Shown: in pieces, positions 330-55,725 of the stretch | Numbering within the stretch: the first letter of the stretch is position 1 | How the letters are laid out: each line of letters starts with the position of its first letter | Assembly: GCA_965230955.1 (NCBI GenBank) | Contig: OZ246404.1 | Span: 685,426 to 749,425 of the forward strand | Origin: an uncultured Candidatus Saccharibacteria bacterium | GTDB lineage: Bacteria; Patescibacteriota; CALEFQ01 | Direction of reading: 5' to 3' | DNA length: 64,000 nt | Notes under the pieces: model-generated | Database searches by the model: none | Told to the model about the DNA's origin: nothing | The model's input: the letters and a program-made list of their open reading frames with translations, nothing else | Made by a program: the position numbers and the translations under genes

Positions 330-760
330 GTACCCAAGAAGACCTGTAAGCCGAGTTCTGTTCCCGCCATAGGCGGGAGACGACCATCTATCTGGGCCGG
401 GCATTACTGCTCGGCTCAAGCTGTCGGATTCTATACCCGAAGGCACAGAGTCCACCGACATTACACCAGGTAGGGTTTGTAGCCGGCGGCTGTCACCAGC
501 CGCGGAGAGGGGTCTTACTCCCTCACTTTTCATCCTTACCCTGTGCCAAATGGCACAAGGCGGTATAGTCTCTGTTACACTTTCCCTGGGCTTCGCCGTT
601 TAAAAAGGCATATGCACTTTTCAAATGACTGCTCCCGCTGGACGTTATCCAGTACCACTTTCACCCTTAATCGGGTTTGGTGCTCGGACTTTCCTCTCCA
701 CCCAGCCCCAAAAAGGAGCGTAGTGGAGCGATCATCCGGTAATCTTGGGTAGTGAAATCA
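330..760 (-). ncRNA. rnpB: RNase P RNA (bacterial type A-like)
   Basis: The minus strand contains GAGGAAAGUCCGAGCACC (P4 5' strand; E. coli has GAGGAAAGUCCGGGCUCC). It also has AAGGGUGAAAG (P10/11 region), ACAGAGA and ACAGAACUCGGCUUACAGG (P4 3' strand; E. coli has ACAGAACCCGGCUUAUCGG). These are in the correct order and spacing. Boundaries are approximate. Confidence 0.75.
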
Positions 761-2134: not shown

Positions 2135-3842
2135 TGGTGCGTATATCTAAAATATTTAATTGAAGCTCTCTATTCCCATTCCATTCGTTGGCCTCAAGCT
2201 CGTAGGCCACATCGACAGTGTCCTGGAAATTGATCCGATTCACCATTTCCCCGAAACCGAAAGCAATGGCCGGAATAACATTGGCCGGAGCTTCCGCCGA
2301 GCGCAAATCAAGTTTGAGATGTTTTCCCTGCTTACCCACCGCTCTCACGCCGGCCACCAATAATTGCTTGGTGGCAAAACGAGGCTTTTCATTGGCGAAA
2401 CCATGCGGCTCAAAAACCTTCAAGGCATCGTGCAATTCCCAATTAATCTGATCCGGCCGCAAAACGGAATCGATCGCCAGCTCACTGCGCAAATCATCGG
2501 GGGCTAATTTTTTCTTGGCCACCGCCTTGAGCCGGCGGGCGAAACTATCAAGATTCTTGTTCGGTACCGTACAACCGGCGGCCTGAGAATGGCCGCCATG
2601 TTTTTCCAGCAAATCATCACACATTCGTATCGCTTCGATAATATTAAATTTGGCGGTACTGCGCGCCGAGCCGACACTGAAAGTCGCCTTTTTTTCCAAA
2701 ATTAACACCGGCCGGGCGTGGCGTTCGCACAGCTTGCCGGCAACCAAACCAACCACACCGGAAGGCCAGTTTTCGCTATAAGCCACCAGGAGGGATTTCT
2801 CATCGGTCACATCCCCGATCTGCGTTTCCGCCTCTTTCATGAATTTATCGGTAATCACTTGGCGCTGGCGATTGATCAAATCCAATTCCTGGGCCAAGGC
2901 CAAAGCTTTTTCCCCGGAATCGGCCATCAGCAAATCAAAAGCTATTTGGGAATGCTTGAGACGGCCGGCGGCATTCAGCCGCGGACCGATACGAAAACCG
3001 ATATCATAAGTGTCCAAATCCTGAAGATCAACTTGCGATTTTTCCATGAGCGAACGTAACCCGGTCCGTTTGGTTCGCGCCAGCACTTGCAAACCGTATT
3101 TCACCAAGGTGCGGTTTTCCCCGATAATCGGCGCGCAATCGGCCACGGTGCCCACCGCCACCAAATCAAGATACCATTTTTCCGACTGGGCTAATTTTTG
3201 TCCGGCCGGCAATTTGGTCTTGAGCGCTTGAATCATTTTAAAAGCCACACCGACACCGGCTAATTGTTTGAAAGGATATTTGTCGTCTTGGCGCGAAGGA
3301 TTGATGACCGCATCCGCCGCGGGAATTTTATCCGGCACGGTATGATGATCGGTGATTACCACGTCCATTCCCAGTTTTTTGGCCAGGGCCACCTCGGTAA
3401 TATTGGTAATTCCGCAATCCACGCTGACGATCAAATTAACGCCATCCGCCTTAAACTTTTTGATAGCTTCTTGATTGATACCGTAGCCCCCTTCTTGCCG
3501 GGACGGAAGAAACACACCTACATCCGCTTTGAGTCCTTTGAGGACATCAAACAAAAGAACGGCGCCACTGACGCCATCGGCATCATAATCGCCGTGGATT
3601 AATATTTTTTCCTTTTTGGCCAGTGCTTTTAAAATTCGCGCCACTCCCCGATCCATATCTTTCATCAGAAAAGGGTCGTGCAAATCCTGTTCGTAATCCG
3701 GATTGACAAATTCATCCACCAGGGCCTGCGTTTTGATTCCACGATTAAAAAGCAACTGCGCCACAATTGAAGAATACTCTGGAAATTTCTTCAGAAATTC
3801 CCGCGGGACAGCCGGAGCGATTTTCCAATCTTGATTTAACAT
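2121..3842 (-). CDS. recJ: Single-stranded-DNA-specific exonuclease RecJ
   Basis: DHH motif HGDYDADGVSG and a DHHA1 domain, about 570 aa. Confidence 0.85.
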   Translation of the reverse strand: MLNQDWKIAPAVPREFLKKFPEYSSIVAQLLFNRGIKTQALVDEFVNPDYEQDLHDPFLMKDMDRGVARILKALAKKEKILIHGDYDADGVSGAVLLFDVLKGLKADVGVFLPSRQEGGYGINQEAIKKFKADGVNLIVSVDCGITNITEVALAKKLGMDVVITDHHTVPDKIPAADAVINPSRQDDKYPFKQLAGVGVAFKMIQALKTKLPAGQKLAQSEKWYLDLVAVGTVADCAPIIGENRTLVKYGLQVLARTKRTGLRSLMEKSQVDLQDLDTYDIGFRIGPRLNAAGRLKHSQIAFDLLMADSGEKALALAQELDLINRQRQVITDKFMKEAETQIGDVTDEKSLLVAYSENWPSGVVGLVAGKLCERHARPVLILEKKATFSVGSARSTAKFNIIEAIRMCDDLLEKHGGHSQAAGCTVPNKNLDSFARRLKAVAKKKLAPDDLRSELAIDSVLRPDQINWELHDALKVFEPHGFANEKPRFATKQLLVAGVRAVGKQGKHLKLDLRSAEAPANVIPAIAFGFGEMVNRINFQDTVDVAYELEANEWNGNRELQLNILDIRTNVKE

Positions 3843-11369: not shown

Positions 11370-11446
11370 TGGTCTTTAGTCGTTAGTCTTTGGTCTTTAG
11401 ATTAATCGAGAAAAGCTAAAGACTAAAGACGAAAGACTAAAAGATC
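11370..11446. repeat. Palindromic heptad-repeat element, family B (TCTTTRG)
   Basis: Sequence tggtctttagtcgttagtctttggtctttag ... ctaaagactaaagacgaaagactaaaag. The right arm overlaps the gpmI stop codon. Confidence 0.7.
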
Positions 11447-13046: not shown

Positions 13047-13105
13047 GAGTCTTTGGTCTTTAGTCTTTGGCTAACGACCAAAGAATAAAAACCGCTGACC
13101 AAAAA
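13047..13105. repeat. Heptad-repeat element, family B
   Basis: Sequence agagtctttggtctttagtctttggctaacgaccaaagaataaaaacc. Confidence 0.6.
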
Positions 13106-14444: not shown

Positions 14445-14506
14445 TTGTCTTTAGTCGTTAGTCTTTAGTCTTGGGCTAACGACCAAAGACTAAAGACCAA
14501 AGACTT
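14445..14506. repeat. Palindromic heptad-repeat element, family B
   Basis: Sequence gtctttagtcgttagtctttagtcttgggctaacgaccaaagactaaagaccaaagac. Confidence 0.7.
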
Positions 14507-25082: not shown

Positions 25083-25142
25083 GTTTTAGTCTTTGGTCGT
25101 TAGTCTTTGGTCTTTGGTCTTTTGTCGCTTGTCTTTGGTTTT
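25083..25142. repeat. Heptad tandem array, family B (TCTTTGG). It overlaps the 3' end of rplO.
   Basis: Sequence tagtctttggtcgttagtctttggtctttggtcttttgtcgcttgtctttgg. It encodes the L15 tail KPKTSDKRPKTKD. Confidence 0.6.
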
Positions 25143-38522: not shown

Positions 38523-38615
38523 CTTAGTTAGTCTTTAGTCTTTAGTCTTTAGTCTTTAGTCTTTAGCCGCGTTTTTAGTCTACCGACTAAAGACTAACGA
38601 CCAAAGACCTAGGAA
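38523..38615. repeat. Palindromic heptad-repeat element, family B
   Basis: Five copies of tagtctt, then a loop, then gactaaagactaacgaccaaagacc. It lies between fusA and rpsG. Confidence 0.75.
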
Positions 38616-39088: not shown

Positions 39089-39160
39089 TGGTCTTTAGTC
39101 ATTAGTCTTTGGTCATTGGTTCAGTCGAAAGACGAAAGACCAAAGACGAAAGACCTAAAT
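39089..39160. repeat. Palindromic heptad-repeat element, family B
   Basis: Sequence ggtctttagtcattagtctttggtcattgg...cgaaagacgaaagaccaaagacgaaagacc. Confidence 0.7.
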
Positions 39161-46334: not shown

Positions 46335-46394
46335 AAAGAAACCCTCAGGGAGGGTTTTTATAGTCTTTGGTCTTTAGTCTTTAGACTCTAGGCT
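46335..46394. repeat. Terminator hairpin (aaaccctcagggagggttt) plus a short family B element
   Basis: On the minus strand aaaaccctccctgagggtttctttt lies immediately upstream of the comEC ATG. Confidence 0.6.
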
Positions 46395-46652
46395 AGTTAT
46401 TTCTACAATTTTTTCTCGGCTTTTTAGCCCATGCACGATATGTACCGCTCGTTTCTTCACCTGGTACCAATCGGCCAGACTGGCAATTACCGCCTGGTTA
46501 GCCTTACCGTCAACCGCCGGTTCGGTAACGTAAACTTTTAAGGAATCAGGAGCCGACTGAGCTTCAATCCGAGCCTGCTTGGCTCGTGACACGACTTTTA
46601 TATTAATCCTGATCATCTGAAGAAATTTAGCATATTTACCACTGATTGGCAA
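46374..46652 (-). CDS. DUF167 / YggU-family protein (UPF0235)
   Basis: About 90 aa, with the YggU pattern. Confidence 0.6.
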   Translation of the reverse strand: MPISGKYAKFLQMIRINIKVVSRAKQARIEAQSAPDSLKVYVTEPAVDGKANQAVIASLADWYQVKKRAVHIVHGLKSREKIVEITSLESKD

Positions 46653-47351
46653 TCAACGCACCTGACATTTCTCCACATAACGCCTCGCCACCTCCGCCAG
46701 CGCTCGCATCTCCTCCGGCGCAAAACTACGCTCCTGCATAAACGCCTCGTCCAAGGTATTCCGCGGGACAAAATTTTGGAGATAATACAGCTGCGCGCCT
46801 TTGATAAAACGAGCCATTTTTTCAACTTCGGCTTCCGGATGGAAGCGCGGCAAGATGGTCGAACGAAATTCATAGCCGATCTTGCCTTCCATCACGATCT
46901 GCACACTCTCTTTGATCTTGGCCATGTCAACATTGACCCCGCTCACTTCGGCATATTTTTCGGGCGAAGCTTTGATATCAAAGGCCACGTAGTCAATGAG
47001 TTTCTGGGTATATAAATCTTTGAGCAATCGAGGATTGGTCCCGTTGGTATCGAGTTTTACCGCCAAACCCAATTTTTTAATGGCGGCGATGAAGGAAACA
47101 ATGTCGTTATAAATCAAAGGTTCTCCCCCGGTCACGCAGACACCTTCCAGGTATTTGCGCCGCTGTTTCAAATAACCCAAAACTTCCTCCGGCGATATTT
47201 TTTGGAGCCACTGTTCATTTAATACCAGATTACGATTGTGGCAAAACGGACAGCGGAAATTACAGCCCGCCAAAAATATCGTGGAAGCGATTTTCCCGGG
47301 GTAATCGATGAAGGTGGTTTTTTGGATCCCGCTGATAATCATAATAAGCAA
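46653..47351 (-). CDS. nrdG: Anaerobic ribonucleoside-triphosphate reductase activating protein (radical SAM)
   Basis: CNFRCPFCHN. Confidence 0.88.
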   Translation of the reverse strand: MLIMIISGIQKTTFIDYPGKIASTIFLAGCNFRCPFCHNRNLVLNEQWLQKISPEEVLGYLKQRRKYLEGVCVTGGEPLIYNDIVSFIAAIKKLGLAVKLDTNGTNPRLLKDLYTQKLIDYVAFDIKASPEKYAEVSGVNVDMAKIKESVQIVMEGKIGYEFRSTILPRFHPEAEVEKMARFIKGAQLYYLQNFVPRNTLDEAFMQERSFAPEEMRALAEVARRYVEKCQVR

Positions 47352-47424
47352 GCAAAGAGAGCGTGAAAGTTTGAGACCGATTAGTATAACACGCTCTCTT
47401 TAGGGAGAGAAGCTGGTTTTAAAA

Positions 47425-47595
47425 TTAGTGGTTGCCGCAGCCGCAAATGTGGGAAGATTTGTCGCCGACGCTATAAGTCTTGCGATCAGACCATTCGCCG
47501 CCGATCCCCTTGCCCTTGTTCCAATTCTGAACCGGATTGTGATATCCGACCACTCGGCTATAAACTAAAGTTTTTTTGCCGCATTTTGATTCCAT
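47425..47595 (-). CDS. nrdD: Glycyl-radical C-terminal domain of NrdD, encoded as a separate 56-aa ORF in frame with nrdD
   Basis: Translation MESKCGKKTLVYSRVVGYHNPVQNWNKGKGIGGEWSDRKTY...CGCGNH. It contains an RVxGY glycyl-radical motif. Confidence 0.6.
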   Translation of the reverse strand: MESKCGKKTLVYSRVVGYHNPVQNWNKGKGIGGEWSDRKTYSVGDKSSHICGCGNH

Positions 47596-47628
47596 AGGAT
47601 TGTAATTTGTTTTTATATAATTAATTAT

Positions 47629-49668
47629 TTATTTGCTTTTGCTACTCAAGACCTGATTGCACTCATAATGTTCCCCGGAAATGTAACCGTGTTCCGGACA
47701 GATGCTGAAAGTCGGCGTAATGGTAAAATACGGCAGATGGAAATTATAAGCGATCGCTTTTACCAGTTTGCCGCAAGTTTCGGGATCGCTGATTCGCTCG
47801 CCCAAAAAACCGTGGAAGACCGTACCGCCGGTGTACTTGGTCTGTAATTCATCCTGTAATTCCAGCGCCTCAAAGATATCGTCGGTATAATCCACCGGCA
47901 GGTGGGTAGAATTCGTATAATATGGATTCTCTTTGCCGCGAGCAATGATGTCGGGAAATTTTTTCTTGTCGATTTTAGCAAATCGATAAGAAGTCCCCTC
48001 GGCCGGCGTCGCTTCCAAATTATATATATTGCCGGTCTCTTTTTGAAATTTTTCCAATTTGCCCCGCATGAAATCCAGCACCCGAACGGAAAACTGGCGA
48101 CCTTCTTCGGTTGACATATTGACATCGGGACCGAAAAAGTTCTGGAGCGCTTCATTCATGCCATTTATGCCAATCGTCGCAAAATGATGCTCCAGACTGC
48201 CTAAATATCTTTTGGTATAAGGCAATAAACCATTATCCATATTGCGCTGAACCATTTCCCGCTTAATTTCAAGCGATTTTTTGCCCAGATCCATCAATCG
48301 ACCTAGTCGCGACATAAATTCTTCTTCGTTTTTAGCCTGGTAGCCAATCCGGGGCAAATTTATGGTGATGACGCCCAGAGAACCGGTTTTTTCACCAGAG
48401 CCAAAGAGGCCGCCGGTCTTTTGTTTAAGCTTGCGCAAATCCATCTGAAGACGGCAACACATACTGCGAACATCACTCGGTTTGAGCTCGCTATTGATGA
48501 AATTTTGAAAATAAGGCAAGCCGTATTTGGCCGTCATTTCAAACAAAAGCTTGGCATTGTCTGATTCCCAATCAAATTCTTTGGTAATGTTATAGGTCGG
48601 GATCGGAAAAGTAAAAATCCGCCCCTTCATGTCACCAGCCAACATGACTTCAATGAAGGCTTTATTGATCATGTCCATTTCCCGCTGGTAATCTCCGTAT
48701 TTGGTGTCCAGAATTTTACCGCCGACAATTACATTTTGATTTTTAAGGTCGGCCGGCACGGTCCAGTCAAAAGTCAGATTAGTAAATGGCGTCTGGCACC
48801 CCCAACGTGAGGGAGTATTCATACTAAAAACAAATTGTTGGATGTTTTGCTTTACCCTTTTGTAGTCACACTTATCGGCTCTGACAAAAGGCGCCAAATA
48901 GGTATCAAACGAACTGAAAGCCTGAGCGCCCGCCCATTCGTTTTGCAGCGTACCCAGAAAATTAATCAGCTGGCCGATGACGGTTTCCAAATGCTTGGCC
49001 GGACCGGATTCAACCTTAGAAGGAACTCCATTGAATCCTTCCAAGAGTAAATCTTTTAAGCTCCACCCGGCACAATAGCCGTTAATACCCATGGACAGAT
49101 CGTGAATATGCAAATCGCCGCTCTTGTGGGCATCGGAAATTTCCCGAGGATAGATATTTTCCAGGACATAATTGGCAATAATCGACCCGGATAAATGAAG
49201 AGCCAACCCGGAAAAAGAATAATTCACATTACTGTTTTCATTGACCCGCCAGTCTTCCCGTTTCAGGTATTCATCCATCGTCTTGGTGGCATCAACCAAA
49301 ATAGTTTTGGTATCGCGGATTTTTCGATGCTGCTCGCGATACAGAATATAAGCCTTGGCGGTATCAGCATATCCCGCATGAATTAAAACCCGCTCGACGA
49401 CATCCTGTACTTCCTCCACGGCCGGAATATATCCTTTGTCCTTGCCAGATAGTCTCTTTTCTAATTCAGCCACCGCGCGCCAAGCCAGATTACTGGCGGT
49501 CTCTCGATCTTTTCCTCCGACAGATTGAGCGGCTTTAAAAATAGCAGATTCCATTCGATTAACATCAAAATCGACGATCCGCCCATCACGCTTGCGCACT
49601 TTCTCAAAAGGTACAGTCTGTTTTATTTTGGTCATGGAGGTTTGCTTCCTGCCGGCGGACAGTGACAC
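47629..49668 (-). CDS. nrdD: Anaerobic ribonucleoside-triphosphate reductase (class III), main body. It ends at an in-frame TAA 11 codons before the glycyl-radical ORF.
   Basis: N-terminal ATP cone and the class III RNR core. Confidence 0.85.
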   Translation of the reverse strand: MSLSAGRKQTSMTKIKQTVPFEKVRKRDGRIVDFDVNRMESAIFKAAQSVGGKDRETASNLAWRAVAELEKRLSGKDKGYIPAVEEVQDVVERVLIHAGYADTAKAYILYREQHRKIRDTKTILVDATKTMDEYLKREDWRVNENSNVNYSFSGLALHLSGSIIANYVLENIYPREISDAHKSGDLHIHDLSMGINGYCAGWSLKDLLLEGFNGVPSKVESGPAKHLETVIGQLINFLGTLQNEWAGAQAFSSFDTYLAPFVRADKCDYKRVKQNIQQFVFSMNTPSRWGCQTPFTNLTFDWTVPADLKNQNVIVGGKILDTKYGDYQREMDMINKAFIEVMLAGDMKGRIFTFPIPTYNITKEFDWESDNAKLLFEMTAKYGLPYFQNFINSELKPSDVRSMCCRLQMDLRKLKQKTGGLFGSGEKTGSLGVITINLPRIGYQAKNEEEFMSRLGRLMDLGKKSLEIKREMVQRNMDNGLLPYTKRYLGSLEHHFATIGINGMNEALQNFFGPDVNMSTEEGRQFSVRVLDFMRGKLEKFQKETGNIYNLEATPAEGTSYRFAKIDKKKFPDIIARGKENPYYTNSTHLPVDYTDDIFEALELQDELQTKYTGGTVFHGFLGERISDPETCGKLVKAIAYNFHLPYFTITPTFSICPEHGYISGEHYECNQVLSSKSK

Positions 49669-49682
49669 TGCCTACCGTTTTA

Positions 49683-50132
49683 TTATTGAAATTTTTTTAG
49701 TTCCTGAGAAAAGCTGTCGATACTATCAAAGGAGCGATAAACCGAAGCGAAACGTATATATCCGACTTCGTCCCAATTTTTCATCTCTTTTAGAACAATC
49801 TCGCCAATTTTTCCTGTCTTTATCTTTCCCTGCTCGGCGACATTGACCACTTCCCGTTCGATATTAGCCAAAATGGTTTTAATTTCCTTTTCACTAACCG
49901 GCCGCTTCTTCAGCGCCTGACGCAAACCCACTTCAATCTTTTCCAAGCTATAGGGTTCAACTCGGCCGTCTTTCTTGATTACACTGAGATCGAGGACTTC
50001 CAACTGCTCATAGGTGCTAAAACGCGCTTTACATTTCAAACACTCGCGACGGCGGCGGATAGCCTGCCCCTCATCCACCTCGCGCGAATCGATCACTTTC
50101 GATTCACTTTTTTCACAGACCGGACAATTCAT
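49683..50132 (-). CDS. nrdR: Transcriptional repressor NrdR
   Basis: Zinc ribbon MNCPVCEKSESKVIDSRE plus an ATP cone. Confidence 0.9.
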   Translation of the reverse strand: MNCPVCEKSESKVIDSREVDEGQAIRRRRECLKCKARFSTYEQLEVLDLSVIKKDGRVEPYSLEKIEVGLRQALKKRPVSEKEIKTILANIEREVVNVAEQGKIKTGKIGEIVLKEMKNWDEVGYIRFASVYRSFDSIDSFSQELKKFQ

Positions 50133-50242
50133 ATATTTTCAGCCAAATTTGAGGTCAAAAAAATACCTAGCCGTTCACCCGTGGTTTCCTAAGAAAGAGC
50201 TATTTATCCACGACCAGAAAGATTTTCTACCAGCTGGCCTCT

Positions 50243-50285
50243 AGATATAGTGCTAATATTTTTATTATAGCACTATATATAAATC
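50243..50285 (-). promoter_or_regulatory. NrdR-box-like palindrome overlapping a TATAAT -10 element. I read it as the operator/promoter of nrdR-nrdD-nrdG.
   Basis: atatagtgcta / tagcactatat are 11-bp inverted arms. gCACTATATATA matches the left half of the NrdR-box consensus ACACTATATATAGTGT. Confidence 0.45.
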
Positions 50286-50377
50286 TCTAAAAGTTCCCTC
50301 CCTACCTGAATATTTAGCTTATAATAAAGGAAAACTACCAGTATTTATATCACTTATGTATAACCACGGGGTATTTC

Positions 50378-55679: not shown

Positions 55680-55725
55680 AGTGGTCTTTAGTCATTAGTC
55701 TTTGGTCTAGAGACTACTGACTGAT
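55680..55725. repeat. Short family B element between the HIT gene and the miaB-like gene
   Basis: Sequence ggtctttagtcattagtctttggtctagagactac. Confidence 0.55.

Follow-up and report, generated by a model that had tools for sequence, protein, structure and literature searches.

Introduction

Glycyl-radical enzymes are described as single chains in which the radical loop is buried. Among the class III ribonucleotide reductases (RNRs), the single-chain NrdD proteins of Thermotoga maritima (4COI/4U3E), Prevotella copri (8P23) and phage T4 (1H78) have the same fold, an ATP-cone, a finger loop, a Cys/His/Cys/Cys zinc site, an RVxGY loop and an NrdG activase. The subject of this work is an nrdD locus in which these elements recur, on two polypeptides rather than one. 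It lies in a 64 kb (64,000-nucleotide) stretch of DNA from an uncultured Candidatus Saccharibacteria bacterium (contig OZ246404.1, positions 685,426 to 749,425), referred to below as the window; this was the part viewed of a genome of ~1.14 Mb.

The class III radical domain contains a structural zinc site (reference cited in PMC9669993) followed by a buried glycine loop, and in the P. copri enzyme the radical domain moves as a rigid body (PMC11226230). Division of an RNR between genes has been described for NrdJa/NrdJb, which was called unique among the RNRs of free-living organisms in being split (PMC4520616); by that account, a split NrdD was not known in 2015. In a review of glycyl-radical enzymes from June 2026, spare parts are known only for formate lyases (PMC13450708). 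No published description of a split NrdD radical domain was found in the open-access papers searched, and the two-gene NrdD is apparently widespread but undescribed.

Two open reading frames jointly cover NrdD

The divided gene is made up of the following elements, in which Cys657, His660 and Cys670 follow the 679-residue numbering of the large protein.

47629..49668, minus strand: nrdD large subunit, with ATP-cone and catalytic alpha/beta barrel and without a glycyl-radical domain (PF13597, NF006126).
47659..47700, minus strand: three of the four zinc ligands, read from the sequence: Cys657 (47700-47698), His660 (47691-47689) and Cys670 (47661-47659).
47629..47631, minus strand: TAA stop of the nrdD large subunit.
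47596..47628, minus strand: A/T-rich intercistronic spacer of 33 nucleotides (nt), likely the translation-initiation region of the small gene, to judge from its conservation against a relative (L106).
47425..47595, minus strand: stand-alone glycyl-radical domain gene, 56 amino acids (aa) and a stop (PF13597).
47581..47583, minus strand: Cys5 of the small protein, by alignment the equivalent of the fourth zinc ligand (second Cys of the CPxC knuckle).
47542..47556, minus strand: RVVGY glycyl-radical loop, by alignment, with Gly17 (47547-47545) as the predicted radical site.
47428..47451, minus strand: HICGCGNH, the C-terminal tail of the small protein, with a CxC motif outside the canonical zinc site; conserved in close relatives.

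The large open reading frame (ORF; 49668..47629) encodes 679 aa when counted from a GTG and 668 aa from the ATG at 49635; the latter is likely the true start, as it matches the length of the relatives' proteins. Its C-terminus reads ...CPEHGYISGEHYECNQVLSSKSK (in a longer stretch, ...SICPEHGYISGEHYECNQVLSSKSK) and is followed by TAA at 47631-47629. Eleven sense codons (33 nt, 47628-47596), in the same frame and with no further stop, separate this TAA from the ATG at 47595, which opens the 56-aa ORF (47595..47425; MESKCGKKTLVYSRVVGYHNPVQNWNKGKGIGGEWSDRKTYSVGDKSSHICGCGNH). An earlier note made from these letters had reported the stop, the ATG 11 codons on and the small RVVGY ORF, and its coordinates were all correct. 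It had also described nrdD as interrupted by a single stop, which proved to be too simple: relative to fused homologues, ~22 extra codons (the tail of the large ORF, the stop, the spacer and Met-Glu-Ser) lie between the third and fourth zinc ligands.

The two ORFs divide the NrdD profiles between them. The large ORF matched Pfam PF13597 (NRDD) at profile positions 1-526 of 562 (E 4.3e-181), and residues 4-41 of the small ORF matched positions 526-562 (E 8.4e-7; 28.5 bits, cut-off 26.2). NCBIfam NF006126 was divided likewise, at 3-646 for the large ORF (1082 bits, cut-off 548) and 646-683 for the small ORF, of 684 positions. Against T. maritima NrdD (4COI), the alignment of the large ORF extends as far as residue 603, and that of the small ORF covers residues 608-645. 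The Pfam profile is covered in full across the two ORFs, so that nothing of a normal NrdD is missing. A search of the PDB sequences with a 121-residue peptide spanning the junction gave no match; the full large ORF and a profile of the small ORF did match.

The barrel, the finger-loop cysteine (SMCCRL) and the ATP-cone that characterize class III NrdD are all present in the large ORF. The RVxGY loop, normally on the same polypeptide, is absent from it and is carried by the system as a whole, through the small ORF, which with its ATG, Cys5 and RVVGY is a small stand-alone protein bearing a radical loop. Fused homologues follow the pattern ...HGYxxGExxxC-P-x-C-G-x-x-T-E-V-Y-S-R-V-V-G-Y, and the break therefore lies between the third and fourth ligands of the zinc site C-x2-H...C-P-x-C. 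The large ORF ends four residues into the CPxC knuckle region, and the radical loop sits on the next ORF.

The reading preferred here, with a probability of about 0.85, is that the locus encodes a naturally fissioned, obligate two-subunit class III RNR, with the radical domain acting in trans. A genuine split was one of three possibilities raised in the earlier note, and it is the one that conservation, purifying selection and operon context strongly support.

Spacer and frame in related lineages

Seven homologues were recovered when the small ORF was used in a word-index protein search, each of them a stand-alone protein 49-56 aa long. All 14 of the closest large-protein clusters (74-100% identity) end a few residues past the third ligand and have no radical domain. 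DNA was read for six lineages of the clade, and all six carry nrdR, nrdD, the small radical-domain gene and nrdG, several of them flanked by ftsZ and comEC like the window. The spacers between the large and small genes were as follows, with the identity of the large protein in brackets.

Window: spacer of 33 nt, frame 0.
L105/L106 (94% identical): spacer of 31 nt, frame +1.
L009 (91%): spacer of 32 nt, frame +2.
L107 (84%): spacer of 62 nt, frame +2.
L005 (78%): spacer of 45 nt, frame 0.
L108/L109 (74%; ACD_63 bin, GenBank EKD49256/EKD49255, both annotated 'hypothetical protein'): spacer of 26 nt, frame +2.

These arrangements bear on whether the TAA is read through, which would produce one fused NrdD with a 22-residue loop insertion and leave the small ORF without translation of its own. 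The ORFs of the window are in frame with no further stop between them, and in fused relatives the same loop, between Cys3 and Cys4, accommodates insertions of 5 to ~35 residues (P0069, P0081, P0087). Against this, the spacers of the clade span all three frames. Readthrough is thus not a conserved mechanism, because the two ORFs lie in different frames in the nearest relatives (spacers of 31 and 32 nt, and likewise of 62 and 26 nt), and the in-frame arrangement of the window is, judged from these sequences, a coincidence. An alignment of orthologous loci for the same stop and ATG had been proposed previously; the split was indeed present in all six lineages, but the in-frame relation was not kept, and the weight placed on it was misplaced.

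Other observations point in the same direction. In two split loci of other lineages, L001 and L014, the gaps of 1 nt and 11 nt are out of frame and accompanied by Shine-Dalgarno sites, and an ATG or GTG is kept directly ahead of the Cys in every small ORF. The statement that TAA is an ordinary stop elsewhere in the window was borne out by the stop usage there: 34 of 50 long ORFs end in TAA, 9 in TAG and 7 in TGA. No Rfam match was found in 46500-50300 at E <= 1. Programmed readthrough, the second possibility raised previously, is accordingly contradicted and regarded as very unlikely.

Authenticity of the junction and selection

The small protein and the 679-aa large protein were identical on contigs from three sequencing runs (SRR10083292, SRR10083293 and SRR10083296), and the TAA and the 33-nt spacer were identical in L011, L012 and L013, which are assemblies of three separate runs. 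Both proteins are also encoded on the 1,136,458-bp NCBI contig. Between the three closest lineages, the ratio of non-synonymous to synonymous change (dN/dS, Nei-Gojobori) was 0.024, 0.034 and 0.052 for the small gene. For the large gene, pN was 0.04 against a pS of 0.74, with synonymous sites saturated; dN/dS was about 0.01-0.05 across both genes. Both genes have been under strong purifying selection since the lineages diverged.

A pseudogene or a sequencing or assembly error, the third possibility that had been raised, typically shows up as a stop within what is normally one gene. That explanation is contradicted by the identity of the junction across separate assemblies and by the maintenance of the split, at a dN/dS of 0.01-0.05 in both pieces, even though synonymous sites are saturated. 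The ~22 extra codons are also not a point change, and nrdG and nrdR are intact. A decayed or misread gene is therefore considered extremely improbable.

The spacer of the window is identical to that of L106 at 27 of 33 positions, which is above the conservation of synonymous sites and fits a likely role in translation initiation. Shine-Dalgarno motifs are rare in the window (8 of 50 long ORFs), where leaders are A/T-rich.

The possibility was also considered that the two ORFs are joined through a tiny intron, a split intein or a translational bypass like that of T4 gene 60, which would lead from AAA-TAA to the AAA that forms the fourth codon of the small ORF. An AAA does precede the stop and another precedes Cys5, 45 nt apart, and in phages, introns, inteins or homing endonucleases often interrupt nrdD (PMC3653736, PMC12880540). 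However, there was no Rfam intron in 46500-50300, no Pfam match to an intein or endonuclease, and no mobile element at the break; an intein would not fit into the tails and the 33-nt spacer, which are much too short. As for a bypass, neither L108, whose large ORF has GCC-TAA at its end, nor L001 has the matched AAA codons; the gap also holds several further AAA triplets, and other lineages have their own ribosome-binding sites. Joining by any of these routes has barely any probability.

Zinc site and radical loop

By alignment, the zinc site would have four ligands, Cys657, His660 and Cys670 on the large ORF and Cys5 on the small ORF. In alignments A2 and A3, the columns of the first three (C646/H649/C659, numbered on 668 aa) show no variation. 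Cys5 aligns with Cys608 of T. maritima NrdD and is invariant in A1, and its column (C685 in A2) is at least 90% Cys in fused homologues. The suggestion that the Cys residues of the small ORF complete the zinc site thus held in part: Cys5 aligns with a ligand, and it alone does so, but the C-terminal CGC motif lies outside the canonical site. The RVVGY loop aligns with RIVGY of the T. maritima enzyme; S-R-V-V-G-Y is invariant in A1, A2 and A4, and Gly17 falls within the invariant SRxVGY block of A2.

The HICGCGNH tail has the counterparts HICGCGDH, HICGCGQH, HICGCDE and NSCGCGN in close relatives. A CGC or CGCG motif also follows the radical domain in fused NrdDs of Clostridia (L020-L099, e.g. 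L043, L074, L086 and L097), which continue past CGCG into a fused thioredoxin/NrdH-like domain. In split operons of the DPANN type, a small thioredoxin-like gene stands on its own after the radical-domain gene and before nrdG (L102 4891-5121, L104 4768-5010). The CGC tail may be a redox-shuttle tail for a thioredoxin-type (MCCR) NrdD.

Organization of the operon

The cluster reads nrdR-nrdD-grd-nrdG on the minus strand, where grd is the small radical-domain gene, and this order is common to the relatives' loci. Besides the elements listed above it contains the following.

49683..50132, minus strand: nrdR repressor, 149 aa, the first gene of the cluster (TIGR00244, 171 bits, cut-off 124.65; Pfam Zn_ribbon_NrdR and ATP-cone).
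47353..47402, minus strand: RNA hairpin of 13 bp between the small gene and nrdG (-18.4 kcal/mol, z = -3.6).
46653..47342, minus strand: nrdG radical-SAM activase, 229 aa (TIGR02495 (NrdG2), 214.3 bits, cut-off 131.15; Pfam Radical_SAM and Fer4_12).

The intactness of nrdG and nrdR, as had been noted previously, is confirmed by these scores, and the dedicated activase expected of a class III RNR is encoded at 46653-47342. Hairpins occur at the matching position upstream of nrdG in five relatives (L106 at about 3730-3780, L009, L107, L005 and L108), and their sequences differ in the more distant ones. The hairpin at 47353-47402 may be an attenuator or an mRNA-end element that uncouples expression of the activase.

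Distribution of split and fused NrdD

The radical domain is absent from 70 of the 120 closest NrdD homologues, and the remainder are fused. The domain-less homologues end 2-60 residues past the third ligand, most commonly as CP(Y/F/H/V) with an acidic tail, and their named sources are Patescibacteria/Parcubacteria and DPANN archaea (Nanoarchaeota, Woesearchaeota and Pacearchaeota). An NrdD that is 81% identical (P0019) bears a Patescibacteria label; this label and synteny place the window in that group. In all 12 split lineages examined, a small radical-domain gene lies directly downstream, in several cases with a Shine-Dalgarno site. L001, L100, L102 and L104 have nrdD, a small NRDD-matching gene of 53-76 aa, optionally a small thioredoxin-like gene, and nrdG. 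The gaps differ from locus to locus. In L001, which has an archaeal gene context, 1 nt separates the stop from a GTG, and the end of the large ORF contains GGGGGTG. In L014, which has GGAGG, the gap is 11 nt (GGAGGAAGTAT). In L100 the gap is 33 nt with AAGGAGG, and the large ORF retains a complete CPRC. L102 and L104, both with the thioredoxin-like gene before nrdG, have gaps of 128 nt and of 20 nt with AGAGGTG, respectively. None of 80 control loci from GTDB genomes was split at the knuckle; these loci, taken from among the matches listed, were dominated by Firmicutes (mostly Clostridia) and contained only lineages other than the Patescibacteria relatives.

In a rough neighbour-joining tree of 117 large subunits, built without support values, split and fused proteins were interleaved, with 14 parsimony changes. 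The insertion of the fused proteins P0081 and P0069 (CPxEH[ST]xE..K[YF]G[VI]...) is homologous to the tails of the split proteins P0098, P0111, P0116 and P0123, and so fission or re-fusion has taken place inside an expanded Cys3-Cys4 loop, probably more than once.

At E <= 1e-3, an exhaustive profile search with the radical domain recovered 4,806 proteins. Their 150 best cluster representatives were without exception short (48-380 aa); 92 of these were plain stand-alone proteins and a few were contig-edge fragments of fused enzymes. The Cys4-equivalent residue was kept in 115 of 117 representatives with a short N-terminus, and it lies 2-3 residues after Met1 in 72. The boundary of the module is sharply defined, because this residue sits so close to Met1.

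In P0133, P0137, P0150, P0174, P0184, P0227, P0242 and P0266, a complete radical domain at the start is followed by a signal sequence resembling that of lipoproteins and by a further 100-170 residues. Such proteins may be real fusions, or run-ons of gene calling in genomes where stop codons are reassigned. Among the NrdD homologues P0074, P0104, P0123, P0062 and P0115, some have an NrdR-type zinc ribbon (PF22811) fused N-terminally to the ATP-cone and NrdD, and others are ~1,000 aa long, P0062 having a precomputed Pfam match to PF14528. The extra length of the ~1,000-aa proteins (Kuenenbacteria and others) looks like intein insertion.

Proposed mechanism and structural models

In the proposed two-subunit enzyme, the 56-aa protein would dock onto the large subunit, where Cys5 would complete the structural zinc site with Cys657, His660 and Cys670 and so form an inter-subunit clasp. 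The RVVGY loop would then insert into the barrel beside the MCCR finger loop, NrdG and S-adenosylmethionine would place the radical on Gly17, and catalysis would thereafter proceed as in a fused NrdD. Two advantages can be imagined, both speculative. Oxygen cleaves the chain at the radical glycine, and only a 6-kDa cartridge would need to be remade; the activase might also gain access to its target without having to extract a domain from an 80-kDa protein.

The large subunit alone was modelled with AlphaFold2. The mean predicted local distance difference test (pLDDT) score was 80.9, and Foldseek gave a probability of 1.0 to all solved class III RNRs. The last 30 residues, which carry half of the zinc site, and the stretch after the finger loop had pLDDT values of 36-58. 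In the zinc-knuckle region, the isolated large subunit scored 47-55, compared with 87-92 for the equivalent C-terminal region of a fused homologue with a loop insertion. The low values at the half zinc site are consistent with a region that folds upon binding its partner.

Several points weigh against the two-subunit enzyme, or limit what can be claimed for it. Docking, zinc bridging and activation in trans are all proposed from the known biology of class III RNRs. The contrast in pLDDT may arise partly from sparse alignment columns after Cys3. In some members of the clade the large subunit itself retains a fourth Cys (CTC or CSC), and so a residue other than Cys5 could be the fourth ligand in some lineages. 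A minor readthrough product may occur here, since the ORFs of the window happen to be in frame, and a second RNR may be encoded elsewhere in the genome, of which 64 kb was viewed.

If a two-gene NrdD is accepted, it bears on how the activase reaches a buried loop and on how cells survive oxygen cleavage. It provides a minimal natural substrate for NrdG, and it suggests that a zinc site can serve as a clasp between subunits. Annotation is affected as well: the small ORFs are unnamed, recorded as 'hypothetical protein' (EKD49255.1, ACD_63 bin) or given the name of the full-length reductase, and the truncated large ORFs could pass for pseudogenes in reconstructions of nucleotide metabolism in small-genome symbionts.

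Radical domains on phage contigs

Among the IMG/VR viral contigs (L110-L269), 64 of 66 short NrdD-type radical-domain ORFs had no NrdD body or NrdG within ±10 kb (e.g. L148 3001-3114, L125 2998-3240 and L157 about 3001-3123). These orphans start M-x-K/R-C-G, contain RVxGY and match PF13597 at 526-562, and their neighbours include large terminase, helicase, exonuclease, Sak4 and SSB genes. Because such orphans exist, not all of the stand-alone proteins of the profile search come from split operons, and the radical module appears to be usable away from a large gene of its own. The phage orphans may be class III RNR spare parts, the counterpart of Y06I of phage T4.

The orphans bear on an alternative in which the small protein of the window is mainly a diffusible spare part or regulator for another glycyl-radical enzyme or for a second, fused NrdD, and the large ORF has another catalytic role or none. 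NrdD-type radical-domain genes do occur on phage contigs with no NrdD body nearby, and the 64 kb viewed would leave room for such a partner in the ~1.14 Mb genome. Yet strong purifying selection acts on the large ORF, in which three zinc ligands, the ATP-cone and the finger loop are retained. In each of the cellular loci examined, nrdD and nrdG flank the small gene, and the small ORF matches the NrdD family only, not PF01228. This alternative is therefore judged unlikely, and the obligate two-subunit enzyme is preferred to it.

No PHROGs family was found for the small protein. Among cultured or deposited phage records, a consensus radical-domain query gave seven matches, six of them under an annotated NrdD gene; the seventh and best (H1, MT835493.1; 65.8% identity) is in an unannotated record of 57,236 bases. 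A match in an Oceanotoga phage that fell in two features was examined as a candidate split and rejected, as it is a normal fused gene with a 4-nt overlap with its neighbour. In L017 (1-171), L018 (1-213) and L019, a 56-aa radical-domain gene (P0006, 67% identical to that of the window) overlaps with the beginning of a portal gene of the SU10 type. In L018, the 42 upstream nt give ...WMTYCSG-stop and GGGGGTAAGG, and the contigs end there; this stretch is possibly the end of a split large subunit, and hence of a phage-borne split nrdD.

A broader proposal, put forward tentatively and held to be less probable than not, is that NrdD-type radical domains are widespread exchangeable 'radical cartridges', serving as obligate zinc-clasped subunits in Patescibacteria and DPANN and, as phage orphans, re-arming host NrdD that is oxygen-damaged or lacks a cartridge. 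If true, this would for the first time extend spare-part systems beyond pyruvate formate-lyase (PFL) to another glycyl-radical enzyme, and would be a natural case of an activase acting on a free 6-kDa substrate. A conserved two-gene NrdD would make the spare-part question directly testable for class III RNR.

Other features of the window

Nearly all genes of the window are on the minus strand. Tandem heptamers (GACTAAA, GACCAAA or GACTAAC) fill intergenic regions, often as two inverted blocks that would fold into long hairpins, and GACTAAAGAC has 41 matches in the window at <= 1 mismatch, against 2.4 expected.

11372-11437, 13049-13065, 14447-14504, 25089-25126, 38531-38608, 39091-39154, 46363-46386 and 55684-55707: heptamer repeat sites.
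331-747, minus strand: RNase P RNA class A, bacterial (Rfam RF00010, 201 bits), the sole Rfam family above the gathering score in the window.

Comparison with known systems

The closest functional parallel is with GrcA/YfiD, found in Escherichia coli, and phage T4's Y06I (vs.6), each a small radical-loop protein that is a substrate of the activase and acts in trans with a barrel protein, as is proposed for the small ORF (PMC8683613, PMC13450708). The analogy with GrcA/YfiD drawn in the earlier note is apt for the way of working, but it does not extend to family membership, nor to the status of the small protein, which is an obligate part here and not a spare copy. GrcA belongs to the PFL-type Gly_radical family PF01228; the small ORF and 10 relatives matched PF13597 alone at E <= 0.01 in Pfam and NCBIfam, and no PF01228 or GrcA model. 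GrcA duplicates a domain that PFL still has, and acts only after oxygen damage, whereas the NrdD large subunit described here has no radical domain of its own, for which reason the small protein would be obligatory. GrcA also has no zinc ligand, while the split described here runs through the zinc site.

NrdJa/NrdJb of Pseudomonas aeruginosa resembles the present system in architecture only: adjacent genes encode the body of the RNR and a C-terminal piece needed for its turnover, and neither is dispensable (PMC4520616). It is a class II, B12-dependent enzyme, and its small piece carries out dithiol exchange rather than radical storage. As expected of a split RNR, the genes described here are adjacent and conserved and together equal the single-chain homologue.

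Among phages, RNR genes in pieces (nrdA-a/nrdA-b of Aeh1, split by mobE; the nrdD fragments of phiAS4, Lactococcus phage 949 and Jug phage) show that separately encoded fragments can function (PMC3653736, PMC12880540). Those breaks either result from introns, inteins or homing endonuclease genes or are isolated cases without an explanation, whereas the break described here falls at a fixed domain boundary that is conserved across many cellular lineages.

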